Part shown: piece after piece, positions 1 through 23,932 of the stretch
How positions within the stretch are numbered: position 1 is the stretch's first letter
Layout: each line of letters opens with the position of its first letter
Assembly (NCBI GenBank): GCA_965222155.1
Contig: CBDCTH010000004.1
Location: forward strand, 416,001-480,000
DNA from: Gammaproteobacteria bacterium
GTDB taxonomy: Bacteria; Pseudomonadota; Gammaproteobacteria; Eutrophobiales; Eutrophobiaceae
Length of the DNA stretch: 64,000 nucleotides
Direction of reading: 5' to 3'
Notes under the pieces: generated by a model
The model's database searches: none
What the model was told of the DNA's origin: nothing
Seen by the model: the letters and a program-made list of their open reading frames with translations, nothing else
Position numbers and translations under genes: made by a program

Positions 1-2
1 GG

Positions 3-1745
3 ATCCTTGGAGGAACTGGGGACGGCGTAACGATTAGTAACGTTGAGAACATTATCGGGTCTCAGGGCGACGACAACCTGACCGGTGATGATAGAAATAA
101 CGTCATTGAAGGTGGCGAGGGTGGTGATACTCTTATAGGTGGAGGAGGAGAGGACACCTTATCCTATGCCAGTTCGGATGACTGGGTCAGGGTATCGCTT
201 GCCACTGAAACTGCCTCCAGGGGGCACGCTTCAGGTGATGAGTTCCAAAACTTCGCAAATATTACCGGGTCTGGTCACGATGACGACCTGACCGGCAACG
301 ACGAAGACAATGTGCTTAAGGGCGGTGACGGTGATGATGATCTGGTTGGTAACGAGGGCGCTGATACGCTGGAAGGCGGTGCTGGAGCCGATGAGTTGGA
401 CGGCGGTATTCCTAATGCTACTAGTCAAGAAGGCGCTGGCGAGGAGGCAGATCTCGACGATACCTTGTCCTATGCAAGTTCGAACGCTGGCGTCACGGTA
501 CACCTGGCTGGTGCCAGGGTTTCCGGCGGTCATGCCACAGGTGATACTATTGCGACTGTTGAAACGGACCATGATAAGGACGCAAAGACAGACAAAATTG
601 ACGTCTCTACCTTCGAGAACGCTACCGGATCTATGTATAATGACACATTAACAGGCGATTATATGGACAACAAGCTCACCGGCAACGCCGGTGATGATAC
701 CCTCAAGGGCGGTGCCGGAGCGGATACGCTTAACGGCGGCCCCGGGGCGGACACGCTTGATGGTGGATCGTCGTTGGAGGAAGGTGGTGATACCCCTAAC
801 AACGCAACTGATGATAAGCAACACGTGGATATCGCATCCTACGCCGGAGCAACGGCAGGCGTTACAGTGGACTTGAGCACCGGCAGAGGGACGGCGGGCG
901 ACGCCAAAGGCGATACGCTTGACGATATTGAGAAAGTCATGGGATCTGCAAATGATGATACGTTCATTGCCAGTGCAGGGGCTGACGACATTGATGGCAG
1001 CGCCCACGATGGGGACGACGAGGGAGACGAAGGTGGTGACGGTGATACCGTATCCTATGAAGCATCAGGAGCAGGCGTTGCTGTGACTTTGATGGGTGAT
1101 AACAATGCCACTATCCCCTCCAAGATTGGTACTGGTGATGCTGCTGTCGAAAATGGCGCCGCTGGCGATGTGCTTTCCAATATCGAGAACCTTACCGGGT
1201 CTGCTCAAGGTGATTCTCTGACTGGAGACGGAAATGACAATACCCTCAAGGGCGGTGATGGCGGTGACACACTGATGGGCTTAGCTGGTAATGACATGCT
1301 GATGGGCGACGCCGGCGATGACACACTGAATGGCGGCGCCGGCGATGACACACTGAATGGCGGCGCCGGCGATGACACACTGAATGGCGGTGATGGCAAA
1401 AACACACTGAATGGCGGTGCCGGCGATGACGTACTGAATGGCAATGCCGGCGGCGTTGACACCTTCGTATTCAGCCCCGATGATGGGGATTGGGATGATG
1501 TCATTGTTGACTTCGATGAAGGAACCGATAAAATTGACCTGTCAGCTTTCAGAAACCTTAATGCTGATGCTCTGAAGGATCTCATAGAAGTACGAGGGAG
1601 CAGCGTCATAATCGATCTGACTGGTCTTGGCGGAGGGAAAATTGCAATACAAGATGATGGCGCTGGTAACGCTAGGGCTTTGGAGGGAGTTCTAGAAAGC
1701 ACCCTAACAGACGACAATTCGGCAAATGATGTTTTCATCCTCTGA
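3..1745 (+). CDS. RTX-type Ca2+-binding repeat surface protein (T1SS substrate), 5'-truncated by the window edge; paralog of 13690..16932
   Basis: The frame is open from position 3 (ILGGTGDGVTISNVENIIGSQGDD...) into ORF 312..1745. It has many GGxGxDxLxG nonapeptides and a C-terminal DTFVFSP...DKIDLSAF...DVFIL secretion-signal-like tail. Confidence 0.92.
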   Translation: MLGGTGDGVTISNVENIIGSQGDDNLTGDDRNNVIEGGEGGDTLIGGGGEDTLSYASSDDWVRVSLATETASRGHASGDEFQNFANITGSGHDDDLTGNDEDNVLKGGDGDDDLVGNEGADTLEGGAGADELDGGIPNATSQEGAGEEADLDDTLSYASSNAGVTVHLAGARVSGGHATGDTIATVETDHDKDAKTDKIDVSTFENATGSMYNDTLTGDYMDNKLTGNAGDDTLKGGAGADTLNGGPGADTLDGGSSLEEGGDTPNNATDDKQHVDIASYAGATAGVTVDLSTGRGTAGDAKGDTLDDIEKVMGSANDDTFIASAGADDIDGSAHDGDDEGDEGGDGDTVSYEASGAGVAVTLMGDNNATIPSKIGTGDAAVENGAAGDVLSNIENLTGSAQGDSLTGDGNDNTLKGGDGGDTLMGLAGNDMLMGDAGDDTLNGGAGDDTLNGGAGDDTLNGGDGKNTLNGGAGDDVLNGNAGGVDTFVFSPDDGDWDDVIVDFDEGTDKIDLSAFRNLNADALKDLIEVRGSSVIIDLTGLGGGKIAIQDDGAGNARALEGVLESTLTDDNSANDVFIL

Positions 1746-1796
1746 TCAACCTGAGCATCAAAACCAGCTTCCTGATTTCACGGAAGTAAACGATCA

Positions 1797-1842
1797 CAGG
1801 GGCGGTTTAGCCGGGTTTCCCGTTTAAATCAGCCCCTGTTTT
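1797..1842 (+). terminator. Probable intrinsic terminator of the first RTX gene
   Basis: Imperfect stem CAGGGGCGGTTTA...TAAATCAGCCCCTG followed by TTTT. A homologous hairpin follows the second RTX gene. Confidence 0.6.
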
Positions 1843-1917
1843 ATTAAAAGGGGTCGGTGACAAATGAGAACAAAGTGATCGGGGTCAGGTCGCACAATGC
1901 GCAGTGTTAAAACCCGA

Positions 1918-1946
1918 TTGACAACGAGCCTCAGCCAAGCTACACT
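1918..1946 (+). promoter_or_regulatory. sigma70-type promoter of the small MATKDD gene
   Basis: TTGACA-N17-TACACT, with RBS AAGGAGGT just upstream of the ATG at 1992. Repeated upstream of the copies starting at 13102 and 13439. Confidence 0.65.
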
Positions 1947-1991
1947 GCCTGAACGATTAACTGGAAGTTGTAAGAAAAGGAGGTACACCCG

Positions 1992-2252
1992 ATGATAAAT
2001 CAAGAAGCCCAACCGAATGGCAGCATGGAGGCCTTCGCCAGCGCCTTTTCCAACCTGGTAAAAGACGCCACCTCACACCTGGCCACCAAGGACGACCTCG
2101 CCAACATGGCCGCCAACATGGCCACCAAGGACGATATCAATAAACTTTCCGACAGGATAGACAAGGTAGAGCAAACGGTAGCGGAAGGCTACAAGCGCAT
2201 TTATAGCTGGAGAGACGAGATGTATAAGACGTTTGTCCGAAAAGCAGAGTAA
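1992..2252 (+). CDS. Small coiled-coil protein with ATKDD (beta-layer-type) motifs, 86 aa
   Basis: Strong RBS and promoter; LATKDDLANMAANMATKDDI motif; identical protein at 12842..13102. The stop codon TAA lies inside the downstream GAGTAATCCAGG repeat. Confidence 0.8.
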   Translation: MINQEAQPNGSMEAFASAFSNLVKDATSHLATKDDLANMAANMATKDDINKLSDRIDKVEQTVAEGYKRIYSWRDEMYKTFVRKAE

Positions 2253-2543
2253 TCCAGGACACCCATAAATCAGATAGACGTATCTGTAGCCTTCGAGAGT
2301 CTGGTAGTGTCAAATTTGTTTCGCACTTTTTTCTCTGGGGTCGAGTAATTCAGGACAACCACAAATTAGATAGCCATACCCTGTAGCCTTCCAGGGTCGG
2401 ACCCGTATGACCCCATTATAAGAATGGATGCCGGGTCAAGCCCGGTATGGCGACGAAGGAGTCGCCCCCCTGTCGCCGTTCCGGCGAACGATGAGAATCT
2501 GTGATGATTTGTGATAAAACCCACAACCTCGGGGAAAAATGTG

Positions 2544-2572
2544 TGGACAGGTTCGATGCATACAATTATATT
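2544..2572 (+). promoter_or_regulatory. Cassette sigma70-type promoter (copy 1)
   Basis: TGGACA-N17-TATATT. The same boxes occur at 7630-7658, 8276-8304, 9037-9065 and 10771-10799, and as ATGACA-N17-TATATT on the minus strand upstream of 10399. Confidence 0.6.
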
Positions 2573-2641
2573 AAAGATAACTCAGAACCGGTAGATAACA
2601 GGCTCGCACTGACCACATAAGGAGACTAAGGAAAATACACC

Positions 2642-2905
2642 ATGTCAATGGAATTAATTGCAATCATAGGCGTCGGCGTCACGCTGGCCGGGCTTATCCT
2701 GAATGGTCAACACAACCTGCGGAATGAGATAGGCGGCTTGCGGGAAGAAATTAATGGCCTGCGGGAAGAAATTAATGGCTTGCGGGAAGAAATTAATGGC
2801 TTGCGGGAACGCATGGCACATCTGGAAGGATTGCTTGAGGGCCTGCGTGAGGCTATTACCGGTCGACGTGTGGCCGAAGACTCCGGACAATACGACCCAC
2901 GCTGA
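2642..2905 (+). CDS. Membrane-anchored coiled-coil protein, cassette paralog 1 (87 aa; 21-bp GLREEIN heptad repeats)
   Basis: N-terminal hydrophobic segment, heptad repeats, conserved RMAHLEGLLEGLREAITGRR C-terminus; leader AAGGAGACTAAGGAAAATACACC. Confidence 0.82.
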   Translation: MSMELIAIIGVGVTLAGLILNGQHNLRNEIGGLREEINGLREEINGLREEINGLRERMAHLEGLLEGLREAITGRRVAEDSGQYDPR

Positions 2906-3273
2906 CCTGTCCCTTCCTGCTTCCGCAGGAATTACGAGTACGGGTTTCTGCATTATTATCGGGTAAATGGAGTAATTCAGGGAGCAAATCCAGGACACCC
3001 ACAAATCTAGCTTCCTGATTTCACGGAAGTAAACGATCACAGGGGCAGAGTAATCCAGGACACCCATAAATCAGATAGATGGATCAGAGTCAGAACCTGT
3101 TTCCCAGGACAGTAATCCAGGACACCCATAAATCACACTGCCTTCAAAAGGTAGTTGCCCACACTTCCTTAAACCAGAACACCCATAAATCCTGTCCATC
3201 CTGTTAATCCATGTGAGAGTAATCCAGGACACCCATAAATCACGCTGCCTTCAAAAGGTAGTACTCTTTCAAT

Positions 3274-4398
3274 TTAATTCTGACCGGTTAAATTGTCGTA
3301 TGCCCTGTGCAGTTTGGTCCGAGCCTTATCGACATCAAACAGCCAGTTGATGCTTGCTTTCTCCTGGTTGCGTTGGGTCTCCCAGGCCGCCAGTTCCGAT
3401 TGCAACAAGCCCATGCTGTCTATGCGACGGTCCAAACATTGCTGGTTCATGTTGCCAATCTCAATCTCCACCCTGTTCAACCAACTGGCGTGCTTGGGCG
3501 TATAATGAAACGCCAGCTTGCGCAATAACCGCCGCGCCGCTGGCGCCGGGAATGCCCGGTACAAGGCGGCCGGCTGGTGGGTGCTGTAGTTATCCAGCAC
3601 CACCCGTATGCGCTCGGCCTCCGGGTAATGCTCATCCACCAGTTCACGCATCAACTCGGCAAAGTCGCCCGCTTTCTTGGTCTTAGTCGCCTTGGCATGG
3701 CGCCAGCCACGATGCTGGTCAAAACACACAAAGATAGTCGCCACCCCCTTGCGCTCGTATTCATAATCTATCTTATTCACTTGGCCGGGCGCCATCGGCC
3801 TGCCCGCCTGCACCTCCCCCACCAATTGTTTCGTTGCCTCGTCCACGTTCACCAGCGGCCTCTCAGGACAGGACGGCTCAGCATACACATCCAGAATGTG
3901 CTCCATCTGCGCACTAGACGCCGCATCCATCTGCCCCAAACACCACATCTTCTGTTGCCAGGGTTTTAACTGATTCGCCTTCAAACGCTGCCGGATGCTC
4001 TCCAGGGATACCGCCTCCATATCCGTCAGCGCCACCCAGCGCGCCGCCAACAACGATAACGTCCACCGGCACCGGCCCGGTGGCGGGGCGCTGCACGCAA
4101 TCGATACCAGCAATGCATCCTCATGCGCCCCCGTCTTGCGCGGCCGACCGGGGCGTGCCCCTTCCGACAGCGCCGCCTCCAATCCATACTCCACAAACTC
4201 CCGCTTCACCCGATACACCGTCGAGCTGCTCACCCCCAACGCCTCGACGATCTCCTCCTCACGCCGTACACCACCGTCCGCCAACAACAATATCTGCGCC
4301 CGCTTCAACGCCCGTACCCGTTGCCTCCCTTGGGATGTAAATGCCTCCAAATACCCCCGCTCCTCAGCCGTCAGTTCCACCCTGTACCGAATATGCAT
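3274..4398 (-). CDS. IS630-family DDE transposase
   Basis: N-terminal HTH (YRVELTAEER...RWTL); catalytic residues in VDEA, VLDNYSTH and WLNRVE. Likely start is MHIRY at 4398. Confidence 0.9.
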   Translation of the reverse strand: MHIRYRVELTAEERGYLEAFTSQGRQRVRALKRAQILLLADGGVRREEEIVEALGVSSSTVYRVKREFVEYGLEAALSEGARPGRPRKTGAHEDALLVSIACSAPPPGRCRWTLSLLAARWVALTDMEAVSLESIRQRLKANQLKPWQQKMWCLGQMDAASSAQMEHILDVYAEPSCPERPLVNVDEATKQLVGEVQAGRPMAPGQVNKIDYEYERKGVATIFVCFDQHRGWRHAKATKTKKAGDFAELMRELVDEHYPEAERIRVVLDNYSTHQPAALYRAFPAPAARRLLRKLAFHYTPKHASWLNRVEIEIGNMNQQCLDRRIDSMGLLQSELAAWETQRNQEKASINWLFDVDKARTKLHRAYDNLTGQN

Positions 4399-4449
4399 GA
4401 CCTTGACCCTCATAGGATAAAAGCGATAATAGATCATAAAATATCCGAT

Positions 4450-4713
4450 ATGTCGATCCCTGACGCTCCAATACCGCAACCCGGCTACACCTATCTGCAA
4501 GGCCAGTACCTCGCCTTTATTTACTACTACACCAAAATCAACGGCAGAGCGCCCGCACACGCCGATTTACAACGCTACTTCCAGGTCTCGCCTCCTTCCG
4601 TCCATCGCATGTTGACCCATTTGCAGGAGCAAGGATTCATTGACAAACAACCGGGGATGACTCGTAGCCTGGCACTGGCTATACCCGTTGAACAACTGCC
4701 ACGGCTTGATTAA
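4450..4713 (+). CDS. Small winged-HTH protein (LexA-N/MarR-like), passenger of the IS630
   Basis: YTYLQGQYLAFIYYYTKINGRAPAHADLQRYFQVSPPSVHRML...GFI resembles the LexA DNA-binding domain. It lies inside the IRs, divergent from the transposase. Confidence 0.7.
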   Translation: MSIPDAPIPQPGYTYLQGQYLAFIYYYTKINGRAPAHADLQRYFQVSPPSVHRMLTHLQEQGFIDKQPGMTRSLALAIPVEQLPRLD

Positions 4714-4837
4714 TGTTGACCCGTCAACTGATCAAAATTAAATGGAAAGAGTACTAGTTGCCCACACTTCCTTAAACCAGGACACCCATAAATCCTGTCC
4801 ATCCTGTTAATCCATGTGAATTCAACGTAAACAGCAC

Positions 4838-4890
4838 AAAAGGGGTCGGTGACAAATGTAAATAATTCTCATTTGTCACCGACCCCTTTT
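4838..4890. repeat. GGGGTCGGTGACAAATG palindromic REP-like element
   Basis: AAAAGGGGTCGGTGACAAATG...CATTTGTCACCGACCCCTTTT; half copies at ~1846 and ~13568. Confidence 0.7.
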
Positions 4891-5101
4891 ATTGCTTTTA
4901 TTCTGTACCTTTGTATTACACCATTCCAGAACCTGCCCCGGAGACGTTGTTGTTCCAGGGGCGTGCTTCAGCGACACGAAATCAGACTGGGTTCCGGCTT
5001 AAGCCGGGCATGACACCCCACGTCGTACCGGACAGTGCAAATAGAAGACAGACCGCATTTTCTCTCCTCTGTGACAACCCGTCCCTTCTACCAGCCGGAT
5101 A

Positions 5102-5307
5102 CAGGGCAACCGCATACTTTTGGATTCTGTTGCAGAAGACAGGAAACCAACCGGAAAACACCGCCCGTCATGCTGGCGAATGCCAGCATCCAGTCAAACA
5201 ACAGCGCATGCTCAGGGTAATGAAGGGTTATTCACTGGATTCTGGCCTGCGCCAGAATGACGGAATCGGGCAAAAACATCTGAATTCAAAAGTATGCGTT
5301 TGCCCTG
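5102..5307. mobile_element. 206-bp MITE (ISAs1-like ends), copy 1
   Basis: IRs CAGGGCAACCGCATACTTTTG / CAAAAGTATGCGTTTGCCCTG; 10-bp target duplication CAGCCGGATA at 5092-5101 and 5308-5317; near-identical inverted copy at 60127..60332. Confidence 0.88.
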
Positions 5308-5409
5308 CAGCCGGATATTGGTTTTACCGGAATCGGGTTTGATCTATATAATAATCGTGCTATTGTGCATCAATAGTATGATTTTCTACTTTATCTGCTG
5401 CAGACTGAC

Positions 5410-5667
5410 ATGACGACCATTCGAAAGACGATTACCTTGACGGAAAATCAGGACGAGTGGGTCAAAGCGCAGACTGCCAATGGCGAATTCACCGATGACA
5501 GTGAATACATCCAGGCTCTTGTGCATCGTGACCAGAAGCAAAACATCAAGTTTCGAGCACTTAAAGTGGCTATTCAGGAGGGTTTGGATAGTGGTGTGAG
5601 TGACAAGACAGTGAATGAGATCATGGAGGAAGTCGATGGCCGGCATGGAGCCGATGGCAGCTTATAG
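5410..5667 (+). CDS. parD: Type II antitoxin, ParD (ribbon-helix-helix) family
   Basis: TITLT...WVKAQ..NGEF...SEYIQALVHRD...LKVAIQEGLDSG; overlaps the toxin gene. Confidence 0.85.
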   Translation: MTTIRKTITLTENQDEWVKAQTANGEFTDDSEYIQALVHRDQKQNIKFRALKVAIQEGLDSGVSDKTVNEIMEEVDGRHGADGSL

Positions 5668-5956
5668 CTTATCGTTAAAAGCAGCTGCTGATCTTGATGG
5701 AATTTATGAATACACGCTCCTGAATTTCGGGCAGACACAGGCACGAAAGTACCTGATGGGCCTTCATGAATGCTTTGAGAGGCTTGCCGATAACCCGTAC
5801 TATGGCCGCAGTGTGGTAGAGCTTGCATCAAACTTAAGGCGCTTGGAGTATCAATCACACGTAGTGTTCTACAGACCGAGAGAACAAGGAGTGCTGATCG
5901 TGCGTGTGCTGCATGAGAGCATGAATACAGCAACACATTTCCAGGAAAAAATCTAA
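5654..5956 (+). CDS. parE: Type II toxin, RelE/ParE family
   Basis: YSLSLKAAADLDGIYEYT...FG..QA..Y...NPYYGR...HVVFYR...VLIVRVLH; start MAAYS at 5654. Confidence 0.88.
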   Translation: MAAYSLSLKAAADLDGIYEYTLLNFGQTQARKYLMGLHECFERLADNPYYGRSVVELASNLRRLEYQSHVVFYRPREQGVLIVRVLHESMNTATHFQEKI

Positions 5957-6230
5957 TTCGTGAAAAAGGGAGACAGGCCAGCCCGGTCTCAGCATAGGAC
6001 TGGAAAGTAATCCAGGACACCCACAAATCACACTACCTTCAAAAAGTAGTTTCCAACACTTCCTTAAACCAGGACACCCATAAATCCTGTCCATCCTGTT
6101 AATCCATGTGAATTCAAAGCAGTAATCTAGGACACCCACAAATCATGCTGGGTAATGTCAATATTTACTTTATCAATGGATAACCTGCGGTGATTTGTGA
6201 TAAAACCCACAAGCGCCGGGAAAAAATGTG

Positions 6231-7613
6231 TGTTGTCAACAAATAGATTTGTCCGCTTCTGTAACAAATGAATTGTCCGCTTTTGTCTTCACACTGACAT
6301 CCTCCAGAAAGACAGAGTCCGACAAGGATCGTCCAGTGCCGACTGTGCGGCGGACATTACGCAGCAGTCGGTAGTTCATCGGCTATGAGCTGTCCTTGCG
6401 CATCGTATCGTGCCAAGCGCCGGGGGCCATGAAATACACTCACCGTCCCATCCCTATGACGAGCGACCTTCACCTTGGCCTTGATGTAGTGATACCGATG
6501 CCGGTCGGCCGGAAGCTGTAATACCAGGCCGTCTACACGCACGCAGTTGTCCTTGCTCACGGTTCGCGCAACATGCTCACACAGGCTGTCATCCAGTACC
6601 ACTGACTGTGGGCAGGGCACGAAGGCCGAGCCGTCCTCCCGCGCCGGGTGGGTAAACTCGGCATTAAACGCCGGCAGGTAGACGTCCCGCAGATACGCAT
6701 TGGCGGCGTCCATCGTGGTAATACCGGCCGCGGCCAATTCCTGCGGCAAACGTCCCTGGTGCGTGCCAAACGCCCGCTCCGAGCGCCCCCGGGCCGCCGG
6801 GGAATACGCCGGTATCATCTCAATACCCAACTGCGTCATGGCTCGTCCGAACTGTGTCAGATTGCCCTTGTCTACCTTGCCCCCGGCCTCCGGCGTCGTC
6901 CAGTAATGACTGCCCCGGTCGGTGTATAACGAGCAAAACAAGCCCCTCGCCTCAATCACGTCTTTCACGCCCTGAAAACTGCTCTGTGTGCCTTCCTCCG
7001 CACAAAAGAACATCGAGTAATGCTCATTCGTGGCATCATCCATCGTCACAATCAAATCCCAGTGCTGCGCCGGTACCCACTCGTGCGTGCTGCCATCCTG
7101 GTGCAGCAGCATCCCCGGCCAGGCCGCCGGCTCGCGCCGTTTCCGATGCGCCCCGCGTTTGGCCGCTTTCTTCACCACCCCGCCAGCCTGCAACGTATTC
7201 TTCACCCAACTGTAACTGCGCCCACCCCCGTCCCGCCGATACCACGAATAGTAATGCGTCACGTTCCAACCGTCGTGTCGCCGTCGATACCGGTCTACCA
7301 ACCGCATGACCTCGTCCACCGGCGCCCGCCGGTGTGATACCTGACTCAGGCGCTTGTCCAGTAACCCGTCCAACCCGGCGTCTTCATACCGGTCGATGTA
7401 ACGTCGGAAGGTCCGGGCACACACGCCCAGTAACTGTGCCGCGTCCTCCTGGGTTAATCGCCGCGCTGTCCAACCCCTATAGGCTTCTTCAAATCTCATC
7501 AGTTTTGTCTCCTGTAACCAGTTTGTCCGCGTCATCATGCCTCCCAAAAGCTAACATGATAAAACCGGACAGATTATGTGTTACAGATGCGGACAGTTTA
7601 TTTGTTCTCAACA
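6231..7613 (-). mobile_element. IS1202-like (ISNCY) insertion sequence
   Basis: TGT...ACA ends with internal repeated TGTCCG motifs; imperfect 16-bp flanking direct repeat GCCGGGAAAAAATGTG / TCCAGGAAAAAATGTG; inserted in a cassette leader. Confidence 0.82.
6357..7547 (-). CDS. ISNCY/IS1202-family DDE transposase
   Basis: N-terminal HTH; LLHQDGSTHEW, TMDDAT, LYTDRGS and GRSERAFGTHQGRL integrase-core motifs. Confidence 0.9.
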   Translation of the reverse strand: MGGMMTRTNWLQETKLMRFEEAYRGWTARRLTQEDAAQLLGVCARTFRRYIDRYEDAGLDGLLDKRLSQVSHRRAPVDEVMRLVDRYRRRHDGWNVTHYYSWYRRDGGGRSYSWVKNTLQAGGVVKKAAKRGAHRKRREPAAWPGMLLHQDGSTHEWVPAQHWDLIVTMDDATNEHYSMFFCAEEGTQSSFQGVKDVIEARGLFCSLYTDRGSHYWTTPEAGGKVDKGNLTQFGRAMTQLGIEMIPAYSPAARGRSERAFGTHQGRLPQELAAAGITTMDAANAYLRDVYLPAFNAEFTHPAREDGSAFVPCPQSVVLDDSLCEHVARTVSKDNCVRVDGLVLQLPADRHRYHYIKAKVKVARHRDGTVSVFHGPRRLARYDAQGQLIADELPTAA

Positions 7614-7727
7614 TCCAGGAAAAAATGTGTGGACAGGTTCAACGCATAGAATTATATTAAAGATAACTCAGAACCGGTAGATAACGGGCACGCGCTGACT
7701 ACACAAGGAGACTAAGGAAAATACATC

Positions 7728-8024
7728 ATGTCAATGGAATTAATTGCCTTAATCGGTATCGGCGTGACGGTAATCAGTATCGGCGTTGCGCTGGCCGCTC
7801 TTATCCTGAATACTCAACGTAACCTGCGGTCTGATATGCAGGCTCAGCGGGAGGAGACGCGGGCAGAATTCAAGGCCGTGAGGGTGGAGATGCAGGCCCA
7901 GCGGGAAGTAATAATCAGTTTACTGGAACGCATGGCACACCTGGAAGGATTGCTTGAGGGTCTGCGAGAAGCGATCACAGGCCGACGCGTGGCTGAGGAT
8001 GCGGGGAAATACGATCCGCGCTGA
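7728..8024 (+). CDS. Membrane-anchored coiled-coil protein, cassette paralog 2 (98 aa)
   Basis: MSMELIALIGIGVTVISIGVALAALIL hydrophobic segment, QREETRAEFKAV stalk and conserved C-terminus. Confidence 0.85.
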   Translation: MSMELIALIGIGVTVISIGVALAALILNTQRNLRSDMQAQREETRAEFKAVRVEMQAQREVIISLLERMAHLEGLLEGLREAITGRRVAEDAGKYDPR

Positions 8025-8373
8025 ACACCGGCGCCAACCTCTCGCACATTGTCCAGAGTAATCCGGGACACCCATAAATCACACTGCCTTCAAAAGGTAG
8101 TTGCCCAAGAGTAATCCAGGACACCCATGAATCCTGTCCATCCTGTTAATCCATGTGAATTCAAGAGTAATCCAGGACACCCACAAATCATGATGGGTAG
8201 TGTCAATATTTTCGTTATAAATGGATAACCTGCGGCGATTTGTGATAAAACCCACAAGCGCCGGGGAAAAATGTGTGGACAGGTTCAAAGCGCACAATTA
8301 TATTAAAGATAACTCAGAACCGGTAGATAACGGGCTCGCGCTGACTACATAAGGAGGCTAGGGAAAATACATC

Positions 8374-8649
8374 ATGTCAATGGAATTAATTGCCTTAATC
8401 GGTATCGGCGTGACGGTAATCAGTATCGGCGTTGCGCTGGCCACTCTTATTCTGAATACTCAACGTAACCTGCGGGCTGATGTGCGAGCCCAGCGGGAGG
8501 AGACGCGGGCAGAATTCAAGACCCAGCGGGAAGCAATAATCAGTTTACTGGAACGCATGGCACACCTGGAAGGATTGCTTGAGGGTCTGCGAGAAGCGAT
8601 CACAGGCCGACGCGTGGCTGAAGATGCGGGGAAATACGATCCGCGCTGA
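8374..8649 (+). CDS. Membrane-anchored coiled-coil protein, cassette paralog 3 (91 aa)
   Basis: Same family with a shorter stalk. Confidence 0.85.
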   Translation: MSMELIALIGIGVTVISIGVALATLILNTQRNLRADVRAQREETRAEFKTQREAIISLLERMAHLEGLLEGLREAITGRRVAEDAGKYDPR

Positions 8650-9134
8650 ACACCGGCACCAACCTCTCGCACATTATCCAGAGTAATCCAGGACACCCAT
8701 AAATTATGCTACCTTCAAAAGGTAGTTTCCAACACTTCCTTAAACCAGGACACCCATAAATCCTGTTAATCCATGTGAATTCAACGTAAACAGGAGACAG
8801 CCCCCTTTTCTTTGAGTTGTATCAGAGTCTTGTGTGCTTTCCCACAGTAATCCAGGAAGTAATCCAGGACACCCATAAATCAGATAGATGGATCAGAGTC
8901 AGAACCTGTTTCCCAGGACGATTTGACACTACCCAGCGCCTGCATGCCGTTGAACAGGAGATGAAATTATTTACGTTTTCAATGGATAACCTGCGGCGAT
9001 TTGTGATAAAACCCACAAGCGCCGGGGAAAAATATGTGGACAGGTTCAACGCATACAATTATATTAAAGATAACTCAGAACCGGTAGATAACGGGCTCGT
9101 GATGACTACACAAGGAGACTAAGGAAAATATATC

Positions 9135-9464
9135 ATGTCAATGGAATTAATTGCCTTAATCGGTATCGGCGTGACGGTAATCAGTATCGGCGTTGCGCTG
9201 GCCGCTCTTATCCTGAATACTCAACGCAACCTGCGGGCGGAGATGCAGGCTCAGCGGGAAGAAACGAAGACAGAATTCAAGGCCCAGCGGGACGAGACGC
9301 GGGCAGAATTCAAGGCCGTGAGGGTGGAGATGCAGGCCCAGCGGGAAGTAATAATCAGTTTACTGGAACGCATGGCACACCTGGAAGGATTGCTTGAGGG
9401 TCTGCGAGAAGCGATCACAGGCCGACGCGTGGCTGAAGATGCGGGGAAATACGATCCGCGCTGA
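9135..9464 (+). CDS. Membrane-anchored coiled-coil protein, cassette paralog 4 (109 aa)
   Basis: Same family with one extra 11-residue module relative to paralog 2. Confidence 0.85.
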   Translation: MSMELIALIGIGVTVISIGVALAALILNTQRNLRAEMQAQREETKTEFKAQRDETRAEFKAVRVEMQAQREVIISLLERMAHLEGLLEGLREAITGRRVAEDAGKYDPR

Positions 9465-9523
9465 ACACCGGCGCCAGCCTCTCGCACATTGTCCAGAGTA
9501 ATCCAGGACACCCATAAATCAGA

Positions 9524-9615
9524 GAATATTTGGGGTCAGAGTAAAAATACTCAACAATAAACCAGCGCCACCTGCCAGCCTGATTGTATTTTTACTCTGG
9601 CCCCATACATGTGTG
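9524..9615. repeat. GGGGTCAGAGTAAAAATAC...GTATTTTTACTCTGACCCC palindromic element
   Basis: Near-identical copy at ~11443..11534; related copies at ~36726..36811 and ~58183..58218. Confidence 0.75.
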
Positions 9616-9862
9616 AATCTGTTCGCAGCGACAATCTGGCGTGAGGGGCGCTCCACTCCTGCACGATGCAGGGGATCGTGATTTAAGAAAAAATTCTGTT
9701 CGCTATTGCAAGGACAAATGGATAAAGGGAAAACACAGCGAATTTCAAAACTTTTAATTCGGCTTGCATGTCAACATGGTTTTCCTGGTGGAAAAAGCCG
9801 CTTTTTACATGGATGGACAGGATAAGAGTATATTTTCCAAATAGCGCTCTTTTACTGTCAGG

Positions 9863-10399
9863 TCAACGCTGCTCATACTGACCCGGGGCTTCAGCTACGG
9901 CCTCTGCTACAACGCGCCGGCCGGTGATGGCTTCACGTAGGCCTTCAAACAAGCCTTGCAGGTGCGCTATGCCTACTTGTACATTTTTTATTTCTTCCCG
10001 TACGTCCTTGAATTCTGCCTGCATCTCTGTTCGTTGGGCCTGCATCTCTTCCCGCACGGCCTTGAACTCTTCTCGCACGGCTTTGAATTCTGCCTGGGTC
10101 TCTGTTCGTTGAGCCTGCATCTCTTCCCGCACTGCCTTGAACTCTTCCCGCACTGCCTTGAATTCTGCCTGGGTCTCCGTTCGTTGAGCCTACATCTCTT
10201 CCCGCACGGCCTTGAATTCTTCCCGCACGGCCTTGAATTCTGCCTGGGTCTCTGTTCGTTGGGACTGCATTTCTTCCCGTACGGCCTGTATTTCTTTCCG
10301 CTGGATACCCTGACCATTCAGGATGAGGGTGGCCAATCCTACGCTGACGCCGATAATTGTTATGCCGACGCTGATAATCGCTATTAATTCCATTGACAT
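9863..10399 (-). pseudogene. Inverted, divergent coiled-coil cassette paralog 5 (178 codons) with an in-frame TAG
   Basis: ORFs 10190..10399 and 9863..10153 share one frame. The TAG at 10190-92 replaces the CAG found in the neighbouring 75-bp (MQAQRTETQAEFKAVREEFKAVREE) repeats. Confidence 0.8.
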
Positions 10400-10872
10400 G
10401 TCGTGTTTCCCTCAGTCATCGTGTGTTGTCATCAGGTGTCCATTATGTCCCGGTTTTGAGCCATTTTCAATATAAAAGTACGTACTGATATTGTCATGTA
10501 GAAAATAAACCTGCCTGTTTTTCTAAGGAACTTAAAGAAAATAGGTATCCCGGATTACTTCCTGCTACACCATGTATGGGGCCAACACTTCCTTAAACCA
10601 GGACACCCATAAATCCTGTCCATCCTGTTAATCCATGTGAATTCAAGAGTAATCCAGCAAAGTAATCCAGGACACCCACAAATCATGATGGGTAGTGTCA
10701 ATATTTTCGTTATAAATGGATAACCTGCGGCGATTTGTGATAAAACCCACAAGCTCCTGGGAAAAATGTGTGGACAGGTTCAACGCATAGAATTATATTA
10801 AAGATAACTCAGAACCGGTAGATAACGGGCACGCGCTGACTACACACACAAGGAGACTAAGGAAAATACATC

Positions 10873-11256
10873 ATGTCAATGGAATTAATTGCCTTAATCG
10901 GTATCGGCGTGACGGTAATCAGTATCGGCGTTGCGCTGGCCACTCTTATTCTGAATACTCTACGCAACCTGCGGGCTGATATGCGAGCCCAGCGGGAGGA
11001 GACGCGGGCAGAATTCAAGGCCGGGCGGGTGGAGATGCGAGCCCAGCGGGAGGAGACGCAGGCAGAATTCAAGGCCATGCGGGAGGAGATTCAGGCCCAG
11101 CGGGAAGAAACGAAGACAGAATTCAAGACCCAGCGGGAAGCAATAATCAGTTTACTGGAACGCATGGCACACCTGGAAGGATTGCTTGAGGGTCTGCGAG
11201 AAGCGATCACAGGCCGACGCGTGGCTGAAGATGCAGGGAAATACGATCCGCGCTGA
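10873..11256 (+). CDS. Membrane-anchored coiled-coil protein, cassette paralog 6 (127 aa)
   Basis: Same family with three 18-residue-type stalk modules. Confidence 0.85.
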   Translation: MSMELIALIGIGVTVISIGVALATLILNTLRNLRADMRAQREETRAEFKAGRVEMRAQREETQAEFKAMREEIQAQREETKTEFKTQREAIISLLERMAHLEGLLEGLREAITGRRVAEDAGKYDPR

Positions 11257-11550
11257 ACACCGGCGCCAACCTCTCGCACATTGTCCAGAGTAATCCAGGA
11301 CACCCATAAATTATGTTGCCTTCAAAAGGTAGTTTCCCACATACTGTCAACCCAAGATAGAAATATCCCCATGTTGAGTAAGTCAGGGAGTGGTAGCGGT
11401 GGCGGAAGCAGGTGAGTGTTGCCGCCAGGGATAGTCAGATAAGAATATTTGGGGTCAGAGTAAAAATACTCAACCCTAAACCAGCGCCACCTGCCAGCCT
11501 GATTGTATTTTTACTCTGACCCCATACATGTGTGGGTCAAGCAACAGGGG

Positions 11551-11660
11551 TGTTAGGAACAAATAAACTGTCCGGTCCCGTATCGGTGTACGGGACAAGC
11601 TTTATCATGTTAGATTCCAGGAGGAATGATGACGCTGACAAGGTGGTTACAGGGGACGAG
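11551..11660 (+). mobile_element. Remnant left end of a second IS1202-like element
   Basis: TGTTAGGAACAAATAAACTGTCCG...TTTATCATGTTAG...GGAGGAATGATGACG aligns with the reverse complement of ~7510-7613. It encodes only MMTLTRWLQ. Confidence 0.65.
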
Positions 11661-11679
11661 TCACACGTTGACCTTCAGG

Positions 11680-12120
11680 TGAAGGTCCTGGACTATGAAG
11701 CACAGCGTCCGTCGGGCAAGGTGCAGCAGTTTACCTGGGTGACCGATAATTCCCTGCATAGCGACACCCTGATGCGGCGGCTGCGCGGGGCGCGGGCGCG
11801 TGGGAAGAGTGAGAACGAGACAGTTACACCCCTGAAGCACCCAGGCGACCACGTTGAGCATACCCTCCAACACGGCTATCAGCACCTGTCCACGGTGCTG
11901 GCGTACCTGATGAGGCTGGCGTGTCTGATTGACCCGGTGCAGCAGCACTGCTGCGGGCTGTTTCAACAGGGGGTGGCGAAGCAGGGCTGCAAGCGTGACT
12001 TCTAGGAGAAACTGCGCAGCGTCTTCTCCATCTGGTTGTTGCCGGACTGGGAGACGTTGTATCGGGGTGCTGGCCTATGGCGCCGCCCCGACCGTGGTGG
12101 TGCCGTATGATACCGCTTGA
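11680..12120 (+). pseudogene. Degenerate DDE transposase fragment
   Basis: FTWVTD...GARARGKSENETVTPLKHPGDHVEH...HGYQHLSTVLAYLM resembles the GRARWKIENETFNTLK motif of DDE transposases; stops and frameshifts present. Confidence 0.65.
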
Positions 12121-12841
12121 GGGCGGGCCGGGGTCGAGCAGTTCAGGGTTCTAACCCGCATATCTCCACCGGTTGCCTACCATGACCTGAATTCGAGTAT
12201 TTTTCAATGATTTTATCCAGTGTGTAGGTGCTCCCGCTAAATCGCGAACACAGGGGGGACGGATTTAAATCTGTCCCCCAAGTTCCGCTGACCATAAAGT
12301 GGCATGTTTCCCTGGTAGGGAGGGCGTCTCGCCCTCCACGAGGGGAAGATGCCCTCGATCCCGGGAGTTAGCGGGAACTGTTGTTCAGTGTGTAGACGCA
12401 TAGTCGTAATGTCCCCTTTTTGTTTGAGAGAGGAGAAGGACGTTGACCAAATAGAGGGTCATGAGCATGGCAGAAATAGAACGGTTATAGGTGATCTGCG
12501 AGGTAGAGCAGAAGCGTCTTCGACAACGTCCCCTTCTTTGCACATGGATTAACAGGATGGACAGGATTTATGGGTGTTCTGGTTTAAGGAAGTGTTGGAA
12601 ACTACCTTTTGAAGGCAGCGTGATTTATGGGTGTCCTGGATTACTGCTTACTTGTGCGGGAATGGTCAGTAGGCGGTACATTTTACCCCCAAAATGACCC
12701 TTTTAAGCTCATTTATAGTCCCGTTTTAGTATTTATCCATAATATAATCAATGTGTTATCCAGAGTCATAAGGGTCCGACCCTAGAAGTCCAGACTCTCG
12801 AAGGCTACAGATACGTCTATCTGATTTATGGGTGTCCTGGA

Positions 12842-13102
12842 TTACTCTGCTTTTCGGACAAACGTCTTATACATCTCGTCTCTCCAGCTATAAATGCGCT
12901 TGTAGCCTTCCGCTACCGTTTGCTCTACCTTGTCTATCCTGTCGGAAAGTTTATTGATATCGTCCTTGGTGGCCATGTTGGCGGCCATGTTGGCGAGGTC
13001 GTCCTTGGTGGCCAGGTGTGAGGTGGCGTCTTTTACCAGGTTGGAAAAGGCGCTGGCGAAGGCCTCCATGCTGCCATTCGGTTGGGCTTCTTGATTTATC
13101 AT
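12842..13102 (-). CDS. Small MATKDD coiled-coil protein, identical copy of 1992..2252
   Basis: Identical 86-aa translation inside the inverted duplication. Confidence 0.8.
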   Translation of the reverse strand: MINQEAQPNGSMEAFASAFSNLVKDATSHLATKDDLANMAANMATKDDINKLSDRIDKVEQTVAEGYKRIYSWRDEMYKTFVRKAE

Positions 13103-16932: not shown

Positions 16933-17104
16933 AACTTTTTTCTCCTGTGCTATCAGATAGAAGTAAACGAATTCTTTTGGTTTATCGCATTACCAAGCAA
17001 TAAAAGCGCCGTGATTGACAGTTATGACCTCTTATATTGATATACTCCACAATTTTCTTGCAGTGAAGCGTCAATAAAATGAACCAACTTTGAGGATGTT
17101 AATC

Positions 17105-18073
17105 ATGATGAAACCAATCGAAAGCGAGAACAGTTTTTATGAGGACGTGCTTTTTTCAGCATTAGCGAACAATACCCGTATTGCCTACAACAAGGGCTGG
17201 TCCTGTTTTCAAGACTACTGCGTGGAGACAGACGTCAATCCATTATCTGCGACGCCCGCTCAGGTAGCTGAATTTTTTATTGACCTTGGGTCACGCGCCA
17301 ATACATCCAGCGGGAAAAAGTTATCAGTTGGCACACTTATTCTGTATAGGAGCGCGATAAACAGGCAGTATGTGGAAGCATACAAACCTTCACCCACCAA
17401 CCATCCAAAGGTGAATGCCGTCCTGAAAGGATTGGCGCGGATGCGCGGAACTGCGCCGCGCCGGGTGCAGGCTTTGCGGGAGTATCATATCTTGTGTATG
17501 TTGGAGCAGTGTGGAAACAGCCTGATCGGGCTGCGCAACGCGGCGATTATTTCGCTTGGTTTCTCGGGTGCCTTACGCAGGTCTGAAATATGCGCTCTCA
17601 CTATCGACGATATTCAAATCATTCCGCCACTCAATGGAGACGATGCCCGTAAAATGTTTGTTCATATCCGAAAATCGAAAACAGATCAGGAAGGGAGGGG
17701 ACAACGCATCGCTATTCCGGAGGGTCAACGGATAAAACCGATAAAACGATTGGATGATTGGCTTCAGGCGTCAGGCATCACGCAGGGGTACGTGTTCCAG
17801 ACGATGAGACGTGGGGGTCATTTGCGTGGACGTCCTTTGCATCATTCGGATATTCCTCGACTGCTGAAGCACTACGCCAAAGCTATTGGTCTGAACCCCG
17901 GTGAGATCGCCGGCCACTCACTACGGGCAGGCTTTGTGACCAGTGCGGCTGTTCACCATGCGCGTCTGGACAAAATCATGGAAATTACGCGACACAGCAA
18001 CCCGGAAACGGTCATGAGATACATTCGGGACGTGGAGTTATTCAGAGATCACGCCGGAAAGGATTTTTTGTAA
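17105..18073 (+). CDS. Tyrosine recombinase/integrase
   Basis: N-terminal NTRIAY...W..F core-binding region; catalytic R (LRRSEI), K (SKTDQ), H-x-x-R (GHSLRAG), H (TRHS) and Y (MRYIR). Confidence 0.92.
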   Translation: MMKPIESENSFYEDVLFSALANNTRIAYNKGWSCFQDYCVETDVNPLSATPAQVAEFFIDLGSRANTSSGKKLSVGTLILYRSAINRQYVEAYKPSPTNHPKVNAVLKGLARMRGTAPRRVQALREYHILCMLEQCGNSLIGLRNAAIISLGFSGALRRSEICALTIDDIQIIPPLNGDDARKMFVHIRKSKTDQEGRGQRIAIPEGQRIKPIKRLDDWLQASGITQGYVFQTMRRGGHLRGRPLHHSDIPRLLKHYAKAIGLNPGEIAGHSLRAGFVTSAAVHHARLDKIMEITRHSNPETVMRYIRDVELFRDHAGKDFL

Positions 18074-18201: not shown

Positions 18202-18630
18202 ATGACGGATCAACAAGACAAACTTAACGGCAGCGCGCAAACATTTATCCGCGCGTTTTCCGACCTGATAAAGGATGCCACGTCTCACTTGGCCACCAAG
18301 GATGACATAGCCAACATGGCCACCAAGGATGACATAGCCAACATGGCCACCAAGGACGACATAGCCAACATGGCCACCAAGGACGACATAGCCAACATGG
18401 CCACCAAGGACGATATAGCCAACATGGCCACCAAGGACGATATAGCCAACATGGCCACCAAGGACGATATAAATCAACTTTCAGACAGGATAGACAGGGT
18501 GGAGACCCACCTCAACCGGCAAATAGTCACGACCAATAAAAACATGCAGGCGCAGTTTGCCCAACAGGAGAAGAAAATCGCCGAGATTAATAGAAAGCTG
18601 GACGAAGCCGGCTATATGAACACGCGCTGA
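18202..18630 (+). CDS. Coiled-coil protein with IANMATKDD nonad repeats (142 aa), paralog of 1992..2252
   Basis: RBS GGAGG; shares the FSDLIKDATSHLATKDD head; ATKDDIANM x6 followed by ATKDDINQL. Confidence 0.85.
   Translation: MTDQQDKLNGSAQTFIRAFSDLIKDATSHLATKDDIANMATKDDIANMATKDDIANMATKDDIANMATKDDIANMATKDDIANMATKDDINQLSDRIDRVETHLNRQIVTTNKNMQAQFAQQEKKIAEINRKLDEAGYMNTR
18290..18471 (+). repeat. 27-bp coding tandem repeat, about 6.7 units
   Basis: TGGCCACCAAGGAYGAYATAGCCAACA units. Confidence 0.92.
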
Positions 18631-20809: not shown

Positions 20810-21049
20810 CGTCATGCCGGGCTTGACCCGGTATCCAGTCTGATAATGTGTCGCCCCTGGCGACTCCTTGTCTCACTGGATTCCGGCATTCGCCGGAATG
20901 ACGACAGGGGGGCCTCGCCGGAATGACGACAGGGGCCTCGCGGAATGACGACAGGGGGCTTCGCCGGAATGACGACAGGGAGCCTCGTCGGAATGACGAC
21001 AGGGGGATTCGTCGAAATCATACTGGATGCCGGGTCAAGCCCGGCATGG
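20810..21049. repeat. Composite REP-like cluster with about 5 stuttered ~24-bp CGGAATGACGACAGGGG units
   Basis: Bounded by inverted GTCATGCCGGGCTTGACCCGG..TCCAG palindromes. Confidence 0.8.
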
Positions 21050-21098
21050 TAGAATCGCCGTGATGACAATCGAATGTAGAAGCAGTACGAGTTAAATT

Positions 21099-22547: not shown

Positions 22548-23923
22548 TTGGGGTCAGAGTAAACACGACGAATTACCATTCCTGCGGAAGCAGGAATCCA
22601 CTAAGCCTATCAATGGATTCCTGCTTTCGCAGGAATGGCGCTGGGGGCGCACGAATAGGGTTCGCCATACTCATGTTATCACTCTGCCTGGGACAGACCG
22701 CCATGGCCGGCGAGTCGGCCGGTTCCTACACCTTGTCGCAGGCGTTTCTGGATGCGCAGGCGCGGGATGCCCGGATGCAGGCGGCCGATAATCGCGTGGC
22801 GGAAGCGCGCGAGAGGCTGGTGGAAGTCAACACCAGTCGCCGCCCCTCGCTCACCATATCCGGCAACACCGGGTACAGCCATAACCGCAGCGAGGCTCGC
22901 GTGAAGCAGACCTATGAGGGGCACTCGTACCGGGGCAGGCTGCAGCTTAACCAGAACCTGTATACCTTCGGCCGTCTGGAGGGCCGCCAGCGCCGGGCCG
23001 AGGCCGAGATCGCCGAGGCGGAATACGCTTTTGAGGAAGTGCGCCAGGAAGTCCTGGCGGAGGTCGCCCGCGCCTTTTCCGAGCAGTTGTTCCGGAAACG
23101 CATCTACGACAGCCGGCGCGACTTCGAGATGCTGCTGGTCGATCTTGAAGACATTGCGCGCCGGCGTATCGAACAGGGTAGCCTGGACCGCACCGAGTTG
23201 TTTGAAGTCCTGCGCCGCCTGCACCAGGCGCGGGCGCAGCGTATTGAGGCCGATTCCTATTACCGGGTGGCGCGGGCGCAGTTAGTGCGGCTGACGGGAA
23301 CCGAGCATGACGACCTGGCGCCCACTTCCCTGGCCGGCCTGGAACTGGCGACTCCGGCCAGTCTCGAAGATGCGCTGATCCGGGCCGAGAACCGGTCCCC
23401 CTCCCTGGCGCGGGCGCGCATGCGCCTGGAAGCCGCAGAAGGAGAGCTGGCGTTCCGCAAGGCTGAGCTCTGGCCGACCCTGAGCCTGGAGGTCAACGCC
23501 AGCGCCGGCCACGTTGGGCCGATCGACACCCGCGATATTGTCGGCGGAGTCAACCTTTCGGTGCCGATGTATGAAGGCGGCCTCAAGCGCTCACAGTTGC
23601 GCGGCGCCAGGCTGGCGATGGAAACCGCGCGCCGGGACTTGTCCGCGGAACGGGACCAGGTCGAGATAGACGTACGCTCGAACTGGGACCTGCTTGAGGG
23701 ATTGATCCATTCCCTGCGGGAGTTCGAGGCCGCAATCGCAGATATGGAAGAGGTGGTGGAACTGACCGGCAGCAAGCTGGACGTCGGCCGCGCTACCTTC
23801 GTGCAGCACATCGAAGCCCGCCAATCCGCCCTGGACGTCGAATTCGACACCCTGGACAGCCGCCTGCGCCTGGAAGAAACCCGCATCGCCCTGCTCCGCC
23901 TCCTGGCGGAACTGAATCCCTGA
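22544..23923 (+). CDS. TolC-family outer-membrane efflux protein
   Basis: Signal-like ILMLSLCLGQTAMA and duplicated OEP motifs (LNQNLYTFG, LWPTLSL, VPMYEGG); ATGA overlap with the HlyD gene. The start is uncertain. Confidence 0.88.
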   Translation: MIGVRVNTTNYHSCGSRNPLSLSMDSCFRRNGAGGARIGFAILMLSLCLGQTAMAGESAGSYTLSQAFLDAQARDARMQAADNRVAEARERLVEVNTSRRPSLTISGNTGYSHNRSEARVKQTYEGHSYRGRLQLNQNLYTFGRLEGRQRRAEAEIAEAEYAFEEVRQEVLAEVARAFSEQLFRKRIYDSRRDFEMLLVDLEDIARRRIEQGSLDRTELFEVLRRLHQARAQRIEADSYYRVARAQLVRLTGTEHDDLAPTSLAGLELATPASLEDALIRAENRSPSLARARMRLEAAEGELAFRKAELWPTLSLEVNASAGHVGPIDTRDIVGGVNLSVPMYEGGLKRSQLRGARLAMETARRDLSAERDQVEIDVRSNWDLLEGLIHSLREFEAAIADMEEVVELTGSKLDVGRATFVQHIEARQSALDVEFDTLDSRLRLEETRIALLRLLAELNP

Positions 23924-23932
23924 GAAATCCAC

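Follow-up and report, generated by a model that had tools for sequence, protein, structure and literature searches.

The locus described here raises the question of why a gene coding for a tyrosine recombinase should stand between a mirrored pair of RTX genes and the genes of a type I secretion system. It lies at the start of a 64,000-nt stretch of DNA (the window; C4:416001-480000, that is, contig C4 of source genome G000, a gammaproteobacterium of the family Eutrophobiaceae). Open reading frame calls, together with Pfam and NCBIfam matches, reproduced the gene order given in an earlier reading of the bare sequence (the original prediction): an RTX gene (RTX1) and a small gene of the MATKDD type; an array of small genes, named TMCC here, for proteins with a transmembrane helix and a coiled coil; two MATKDD genes and a second RTX gene (RTX2) on the opposite strand; and then, again on the forward strand, the recombinase gene, a further MATKDD gene and the secretion genes. 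That prediction held that the locus may vary the cell surface by amplifying, shuffling or inverting cassettes bounded by a 22-24 nt repeat, together with RTX 3′-ends. The linkage of these genes and the connection of the recombinase with a family of invertases were supported; the repeat as recombination site and the exchange of RTX 3′-ends were not. The reading favoured here, given a probability of about 45%, is that the locus, which encodes secreted RTX surface proteins and is conserved in the genus, has a programmed-inversion design, in which inversion by the recombinase would swap the RTX paralog that stands behind a promoter region.

In the inverted duplication noticed originally, the stretches 1874-2304 and 12790-13220 form arms of 431 nt that are 100% complementary. 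The full duplication exceeds both these arms and the window: C4:414420-418304 is paired with C4:428790-432992, both whole RTX genes are covered, and the identity is 87% over 3853 aligned nt (RTX1 starts at C4:414480, 1521 nt ahead of the window). The homology starts sharply 60 nt upstream of both RTX ATG codons, the sequences farther out being unrelated, and the right arm stops 98 nt ahead of the recombinase ATG. Identity per 100 nt at the outer (5′) end of the arms is 100, 97, 95 and 96%; it is 70-85% in the body of the RTX genes and 100% again in the inner MATKDD module. Two full-length RTX paralogs converge to form an inverted repeat, the outer ends of which consist of the 60-nt leader and the 5′ coding region; one end adjoins a conserved promoter-rich region and the other lies near the recombinase gene. 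Inverted repeats inside paralogous coding sequences, with an adjoining recombinase gene, are features of an inverton that the locus shares. Since the arm includes the leader and the start codon, whole genes would be exchanged behind the promoter, rather than a 3′ domain; the geometry points to the 5′-ends, and not to the 3′-ends first proposed.

The recombinase belongs to the Cre/Xer type (PF00589, 58.6 bits; cutoff 27.1). Its catalytic residues are complete: a phmmer alignment to Cre pairs LRR, SKT, GHSLRAG, RHS and MRYIR with catalytic positions, which we take to be R173, K201, H289/R292, W315 and Y324 of Cre. The gene was present in 14 of the 23 genomes of the genus, with 71-83% identity, and 12 of the 16 full-length copies lie back-to-back with the 5′-end of an RTX gene carrying a PPC-like domain (PPC-RTX). 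The other four were found at a contig start, on a contig without a listed RTX gene, abutting an ABC gene and, in the case of a paralog on contig C12 of G000, among insertion sequence (IS) elements. This C12 paralog was considered as a second inversion locus and rejected, the inverted repeat nearby belonging to an IS21 element. An orthologous type I secretion ABC gene (86-92% identity) lay less than 20 kb away in 10 of the 11 genus loci examined, so that the linkage of the recombinase to inverted RTX paralogs and type I secretion genes, first seen in the window, extends across the genus. The recombinase-RTX block occurs in either orientation relative to the exporter genes among species, which at these distances shows past rearrangement only. 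Five of the 11 loci have a convergent RTX pair with an inverted-repeat arm ending 97-312 nt from the recombinase start (98 nt in G000, 97 in G014, 100 at locus a of G033, and 311-312 at locus b of G033 and in G013). The arms of G033 locus a are 99.6% identical over 546 nt.

In each of these five convergent loci the arm ends 17-18 nt past a 22-nt leader element, GAATTCGTTTACTTCTATCTGA. Two or more copies of the leader were detected in 7 of the 14 recombinase-positive genomes, and at most one in all nine recombinase-negative genomes. Upstream of the distal RTX copy of G000, eight promoter-like sites were found against 2.2 ± 1.3 expected; the homologous region of G033 contained seven (1.7 ± 1.2 expected), and the scan of G014 was less clear (2 versus 0.5). 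The promoter-rich region of G000 occupies C4:413900-414420. A consensus scan detected no promoter-like sites in the spacer between RTX2 and the recombinase gene. Every RTX gene of the family has TCGTTTACTTC in its leader and the exact complement, GAAGTAAACGA, in a terminator-like 3′ element. This 11-nt complementarity is kept across the genus even though the RTX proteins are only ~45-60% identical, and may reflect an RNA 5′-3′ interaction or a shared protein-binding site. The 3′ element folds strongly (z -3.89; 0/200 shuffles as stable); it is also found after TMCC genes in G005 and G010, and 18 of the 23 genus genomes have it, some of which lack the recombinase. The leader and the 3′ core GAAGTAAACGA were also considered as proof of a recombinase site; this was rejected, both being present once per RTX gene in recombinase-less genomes. 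The 22-nt leader gave 0 matches in a scan of JGI metagenomes.

The recombinase family was followed outside the genus in a scan that used one genome per species and took taxa from record titles. It yielded 39 loci, 29 of them outside the genus. The 29 homologues show 50-74% identity, and many come from evidently sponge-associated metagenome-assembled genomes (MAGs), the taxa including Thermodesulfobacteriota, Latescibacterota, Poribacteria, Caldilineaceae, Dehalococcoidia, Binatia, Dadabacteria, Paracoccaceae, Poriferihabitaceae and others. Eleven of the 29 (L041, L052, L053, L056-L059, L062, L065, L066 and L068), spanning Thermodesulfobacteriota, Latescibacterota, Poribacteria, Chloroflexota and Binatia, share one order: a PLD/SNF2 helicase gene, a Type IIG gene (+) ending in TaqI_C, an orphan TaqI_C cassette (-) and the recombinase gene (+). 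The Type IIG restriction-methylase corresponds to PADLOC PDLC03596 (up to 1130 bits). All 11 loci contain inverted repeats of 44-272 nt with 66-100% identity, of which one arm falls within the restriction gene and its partner immediately ahead of the recombinase gene; at three further loci an inverted TaqI_C cassette alone stands beside the recombinase gene. The recombinases of the Type IIG loci are 57-68% identical to that of the window across phyla, which suggests horizontal spread. In a Binatia MAG, a homologue lies between two divergent paralogs for DUF1302 outer-membrane proteins (L070, 6816-14531), a further gene family on which recombinases of this family may act.

In other bacteria, long reads have validated the programmed inversion of Type II restriction-modification genes and of PglX genes that stand next to a recombinase gene (Milman et al. 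2023, PMC9881135), and tyrosine invertases at hsdS loci are well studied (PMC7672463). The family sits at cassette-inverting loci elsewhere, in agreement with the link between recombinase and cassette inversion made at the outset. The Type II/IIG restriction-modification and BREX (bacteriophage exclusion) pglX inversions and the Type I hsdS invertons with tyrosine invertases such as PsrA/CreX have a recombinase gene beside an inverted-repeat arm in a paralogous coding sequence, as here, and the same order of convergent gene, inverted copy and recombinase. They differ in pairing a gene with a short promoterless cassette, where the present locus has full-length RTX genes; the asymmetry of a long expressed gene and a short silent one, outlined in PMC9881135, is not seen here, both RTX genes being full length and one carrying a frameshift. 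A further difference from the restriction-modification inversions is the 10.5 kb of other genes between the RTX copies. RTX is not mentioned in the main text of PMC9881135, the supplements of which could list RTX-like targets.

Under the favoured reading, the recombinase would invert the ~18.6 kb between the RTX 5′-ends, and so change which RTX paralog, together with the small genes behind it, is expressed from the promoter-rich region. The adjoining type I system would export the surface protein switched in this way. Gene conversion through RecA may contribute, and would probably keep the arms alike. Inversion is predicted because of the anatomy of the locus, the conserved linkage, the association of the family with Type IIG cassette invertons of the same topology, and the intact active site.

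The main rival is a passive locus of paralogs, in which the RTX and small genes multiplied by duplication, and IS elements, REP-like repeats and RecA-dependent recombination or gene conversion gave rise to the mirror; the recombinase gene would have been acquired horizontally and retained through linkage, or would serve another target, and would not rearrange the locus. Much of what weighs against programmed inversion speaks for this alternative. The arms, kilobases long and 87% identical with 100% tracts, are of sufficient length for RecA alone. In 5 of the 11 genus loci a single RTX gene stands by the recombinase gene, with no inverted partner within ~20 kb; in G034 the only inverted RTX copies are diverged (69% identity) and the recombinase gene is 1.5 kb from the RTX gene; and the G000 paralog of the recombinase is the one found among IS elements. 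The insertions of IS630, ISNCY and parDE into the array would be ordinary decay. The RTX bodies of G013 and G033 are positional orthologs, which indicates no swap, only a mosaic 5′ 1.1 kb (those of G000 and G014 are too diverged for this comparison). No core site of the recombinase was identified, inspection by eye for a motif shared by the Type IIG and RTX arms, or for a lox-like core, having given nothing convincing; and the leader and 3′ elements, given their presence in recombinase-less genomes, count as features of the genes and do not establish a site. It is RTX1, the copy standing at the promoter-rich region, that carries a frameshift: a 1-nt deletion near codon 151 (C4:414935, beside an A run, ~1065 nt before the window) divides it into frames of 174 and ~900 aa, so that RTX1 may be a genuine pseudogene, unless the assembly is at fault. 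The promoter scans represent consensus matches only, and the genus genomes are related, so that the counts given for them are not independent and amount to a pattern, not a statistic. Four public read sets contain the stretch, none of them listed as RNA, and as k-mer unitigs (Logan) only; the unitigs break at the repeat and no piece crosses a repeat arm, so they cannot show orientation, circles or cassette order, and inversion was not observed.

Other observations are harder to reconcile with a passive locus. The back-to-back arrangement is kept in 12/16 copies, and the recombinase has remained 71-83% identical while the RTX proteins diverged to ~45-60%. The distance from the arm end to the recombinase gene is constant (97-100 nt) in three species, the recombinase family has the same geometry at the Type IIG cassette loci, and the presence of the recombinase tracks multiple leader-bearing RTX copies. 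A passive origin is thus possible but somewhat doubtful.

The original prediction assigned the role of recombination site to the short repeat that punctuates the array. The repeat, GTAATCCAGGACACCC, is real: 28 copies (≤2 mismatches) were found in the window against 0.02 expected, 22 of them at 2249-12845 and six at 26229-39969. In place of about 24 array copies pointing forward on the left and reverse on the right, the 22 comprise 20 on the plus strand and two on the minus strand, both reverse copies lying inside larger inverted duplications. Nor is the repeat private to the array, its copies being dispersed genome-wide. At the same threshold G000 contains 124 copies (95 on C4, all at 360-460 kb, 26 on C12 and three on C10), and the 10-nt core GGACACCCAT occurs 224 times, ~9 being expected for a 10-mer, with 154 of the 224 on C4, mostly at 360-460 kb. 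The repeat is also present in G000 as tandem arrays (periods of 27, 17 and 18 nt) and as close inverted or hairpin pairs. Head-to-tail arrays of the core were seen at C4:379933-380419, C4:403299-403902, C4:411782-411892 and C12:1075585-1075772; they hold ~19 copies at the 27-nt period, ~36 at 17 nt (in two blocks) and ~10 at 18 nt. Among relatives, the core GGACACCCATAAAT (≤1 mismatch) was counted 96/95 times (+/-) in G014, 93/95 in G016, 26/21 in G007, 0/1 in G005 and 0/0 in G010; pairs ~29 nt apart occur in G014 and G016. In the array the repeat heads three or four types of module between the TMCC genes, and these modules multiplied with the TMCC genes as tandem units of 625-815 nt. Short, many-copied, dispersed on both strands and often in close inverted pairs, the repeat has the properties of repetitive extragenic palindromic (REP) and REPIN sequences. 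The genome has three matches to PF01797 (Y1 transposase). The repeat is read here as a REP-like dispersed family of 16-24 nt, located in the 3′ flanks of small genes and multiplied for the most part by tandem duplication. The recombinase probably does not use it as a site, because it is dispersed across the clade and yet present in 0-1 copies in G005 and G010, which have both the recombinase and TMCC arrays.

Several observations would nevertheless suit a recombinase that excises, inserts, reorders or inverts repeat-bounded cassettes in the manner of an integron or shufflon. The repeat-bounded small-gene units do exist as units, as was first supposed. A solitary repeat-TMCC-repeat unit lies on C12 between an aldo/keto reductase gene and unrelated sequence, in a housekeeping setting (L018 6883-7497, that is, C12:466883-467497), its TMCC gene being 83% identical to that at 7728-8024. 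The three or four unrelated module types all start with the repeat, there are three identical MATKDD modules, and a block of ~800 nt with a TMCC gene between repeat copies is present in the left arm and missing from the right. In G014 three TMCC genes are followed by the repeat. The genome has six PF00589 matches, and no tyrosine recombinase besides the one at this locus lies within ~90 kb. In run X2, from another study, position 5512 is joined to position 1873, the left end of the MATKDD module, a junction found only there; it is the one unitig joint retained (side of 232 nt), those with sides of 20-26 nt being disregarded. The fixed left end of the module is thus joined to three different sequences. 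The unitig depth of the module is ~3x that of its neighbours (315 versus 82-152 in X1, 527 versus 162-203 in X3), which fits three copies.

Against such a role stand the dispersal of the core, its tandem arrays and hairpin pairs, the ~190 copies each in G014 and G016 set beside the 0-1 in recombinase-bearing G005 and G010, and the relatives of the recombinase at loci without the repeat. Tandem duplication of whole units accounts for most copies, and the flanks of the solitary C12 unit do not map together in five relatives, so that no empty site was found. As originally noted, there is no sign of attC or IntI: an attC-like fold was absent in four repeat-bearing modules (z -0.85 to +0.49 versus shuffles), and none of the six PF00589 genes is IntI-like by score (best integron NCBIfam match NF040815, 49.9 bits; cutoff 220). 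The array resembles integrons and the R64 shufflon in having a tyrosine recombinase beside small genes punctuated by short repeats, a toxin-antitoxin pair among them. It differs from them in lacking an IntI-type integrase and the attC fold, in having cassettes with their own upstream regions, and in repeats that almost all point the same way and also occur elsewhere in the genome. In Rci-type shufflons many short sites, in both orientations, split the 3′-end of one gene; here the repeats are intergenic, 20 + and 2 -, and not in the RTX coding sequence. Recombination at the repeat is accordingly considered very unlikely.

A broader view would join two layers of surface variation: a Cre-like invertase family, spread horizontally among sponge symbionts of at least eight phylum-level lineages, that flips Type IIG cassettes and was re-used in this genus to switch whole RTX genes at one promoter-rich expression site beside their type I exporter, and TMCC-type genes acting as mobile cassettes bounded by the REP-like repeat. 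This combined proposal is put forward tentatively, as rather unlikely in its entirety.

The small genes themselves form a family of their own. TMCC matched 806 database proteins (E ≤ 0.001), essentially unnamed, and was found in 17 of 18 genomes of the same genus and in none of 12 genomes of other families among the relatives drawn. Neither TMCC nor MATKDD has a family in the protein atlas, Pfam, NCBIfam or PADLOC. Arrays of TMCC genes lie directly downstream of, and co-oriented with, PPC-RTX genes in 6 of 10 clusters in G005 and 3 of 4 in G010. TMCC is a genus-restricted, unnamed family that trails RTX genes; its proteins have a single transmembrane helix each, and the paralogs differ mainly in the number of coiled-coil repeats. 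As a guess, TMCC and MATKDD are accessory small proteins that travel with RTX genes, perhaps as membrane-anchored partners or protectors of the RTX protein. Pfam and NCBIfam searches of the RTX proteins detected a PPC-like domain and RTX repeats but nothing of a toxin or pore-forming kind; they do not resemble HlyA-type pore-forming cytolysins (NF033943, 180.9 bits against a cutoff of 1000, in the repeat region only), and no acyltransferase gene was seen among those called in window positions 1-24000. That the RTX proteins are bacteriocin-like secreted toxins, against which the TMCC arrays, orphan copies included, supply immunity at the membrane in the manner of polymorphic toxin loci, would fit the position, variable copy number and single transmembrane helix of TMCC, but is improbable given RTX proteins without a toxin domain or an acyltransferase, paralogs that vary in coiled-coil repeat number and not in a specificity region, and a family absent from PADLOC, Pfam and NCBIfam. 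This last idea concerns function, and can coexist with the others.

The features of the locus are collected in Table 1. An ABC exporter, a membrane fusion protein and a TolC-type protein with an RTX substrate nearby make up a type I secretion system. Of the six paralogous TMCC genes originally counted, five are intact and one is a copy split by a frameshift; parDE and the IS elements also lie within the array, into which they were inferred to be later insertions. MATKDD copies 2 and 3 form a tandem duplication of 337 nt, 100% identical to copy 1. The PPC match of RTX2 scored 21.2 bits, under the cutoff. G+C content is 60-65% across the secretion genes (18899-24000) and 47-55% across the RTX and cassette region (1-18800). 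The window gave 0 Rfam matches and 0 tRNA genes. With both Xer-like recombinases encoded on it (C4:140595 and C4:617974), contig C4 is probably chromosomal and not a plasmid; the G000 assembly is rated 100% complete with 7.28% contamination. Another repeat was also seen. A 93-nt element is present in two copies, 97% identical (window 9523-9615 and 11442-11534); with its terminal inverted repeats GGGGTCAGAGTAAAAATAC it represents a different family, with more than 100 genomic copies. The palindrome GGGGACAGATTTAAATCTGTCCCC has 284 copies across the genome.

Table 1. Features of the RTX locus, in window positions.
Feature	Position	Strand	Remarks
RTX1, 3′ 580 codons	3..1745	+	5′-end open at window edge; PF00353 119 bits; tblastn versus RTX2 77-90%
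RTX 3′ element	1755..1850	+	two hairpins and a T run, terminator-like; contains GGAAGTAAACGA, complement of the RTX leader core
RTX 3′ element, mirror copy	~13590-13690	-	
RTX 3′ element, partial copy	3002-3046		
11-nt core site, leader	16953-16974	-	
11-nt core sites, 3′ elements	1777-1793; 3021-3036; 13642-13657	+; +; -	
MATKDD module copy 1	1874..2304	+	gene 1992-2252; stop codon falls within repeat GTAATCCAGGACACCC
Repeat GTAATCCAGGACACCC(AyAAATCA)	2249..12845	20 +, 2 -	22 copies; heads 3-4 kinds of 50-110 nt intergenic modules
TMCC gene 1	2642..2905	+	N-terminal transmembrane helix, repeat coiled coil, conserved C-terminal LEGLLEGLREAITGRRV
IS630-type transposase	3274..4560	-	DDE_3 83 bits; sits inside a repeat module
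parD-parE toxin-antitoxin	parD 5410-5667; parE 5615-5956	+	PF03693 25 bits; PF05016 72.5 bits
ISNCY-family transposase	6357..7547	-	NF033594 331.9 bits (cutoff 250)
Tandem TMCC units	genes 7728-8024, 8374-8649, 9135-9464, 10873-11256	+	unit spacing 625-815 nt
TMCC copy split by frameshift	9863..10399	-	
MATKDD module copy 2	12790-13220	-	MATKDD genes at 12842-13102 and 13173-13439 in the region of copies 2 and 3
MATKDD module copy 3, truncated	13216-13557	-	
RTX2, intact, 1080 aa	13690..16932	-	N-terminal PPC-like domain, then RTX repeats; PF00353 245.9 bits
RTX leader, conserved, and outer end of right inverted-repeat arm	16933..16992	-	22-nt element at 16953-16974
Cre-like tyrosine recombinase, predicted invertase	17090..18073	+	PF00589 58.6 bits
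MATKDD protein	18202..18630	+	7 repeats of KDDIANMAT
PrtD-type ABC exporter	18899-20641	+	TIGR01842 676.1 bits (cutoff 510.15)
HlyD adaptor	21099-22547	+	TIGR01843 371.6 bits (cutoff 208.65)
TolC-like outer membrane protein	22544-23923	+	TIGR01844 162 bits (under cutoff 225.15); Pfam OEP 150.9 bits

Other systems of surface variation share part of this arrangement. In the sap locus of Campylobacter fetus, antigenic variation of the S-layer occurs mainly by RecA-dependent inversion, with no dedicated recombinase known. The two loci have in common paralogs of a type I-exported surface protein in opposite orientations, with conserved 5′ regions and a single expression region. The sap copies face outward from an invertible segment that bears the promoter and the secretion genes; the present ones point towards each other, with the promoter region and the secretion genes beyond the pair and a tyrosine recombinase gene next to it. 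In the vsa, vsp and vpma systems of Mycoplasma, tyrosine recombinases switch surface lipoproteins, inversion moving silent genes to one expression site. As here, the recombinase is encoded beside the surface-protein paralogs; the proteins and their export route differ, and the sites of the Mycoplasma systems are short, defined and located in 5′-ends, while none is defined here. The Neisseria intergenic mosaic elements (NIMEs) are short modules, each flanked by a 20-nt repeat. Like these and REP/REPIN sequences, the present repeat is short, intergenic and dispersed, is nearly equally divided between strands in relatives, often forms close inverted pairs, and heads mosaic modules of 50-110 nt. 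It differs from REP sequences and NIMEs in its unrelated sequence, its concentration in a 100-kb region of G000 and its long tandem arrays.

RTX proteins and type I secretion loci are known kinds, as are REP-like repeats and recombinase-driven invertons. What appears to be new is the pairing of an invertase family with whole RTX genes, the spread of this family through sponge-symbiont phyla, and the TMCC/MATKDD cassette family; in the literature, no paper was found linking RTX or type I secretion loci, or sponge symbionts, to recombinase-driven inversion. If the favoured reading is correct, RTX/type I substrates would join the gene families targeted by programmed inversion. Sponge symbionts are uncultivable, and most ideas on how they escape phages and phagocytosis by the host come from their gene content. 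One family of recombinases common to different symbiont phyla, acting on restriction specificity in some and on RTX surface proteins in others, would then represent a concrete and testable mechanism of variation within their populations.

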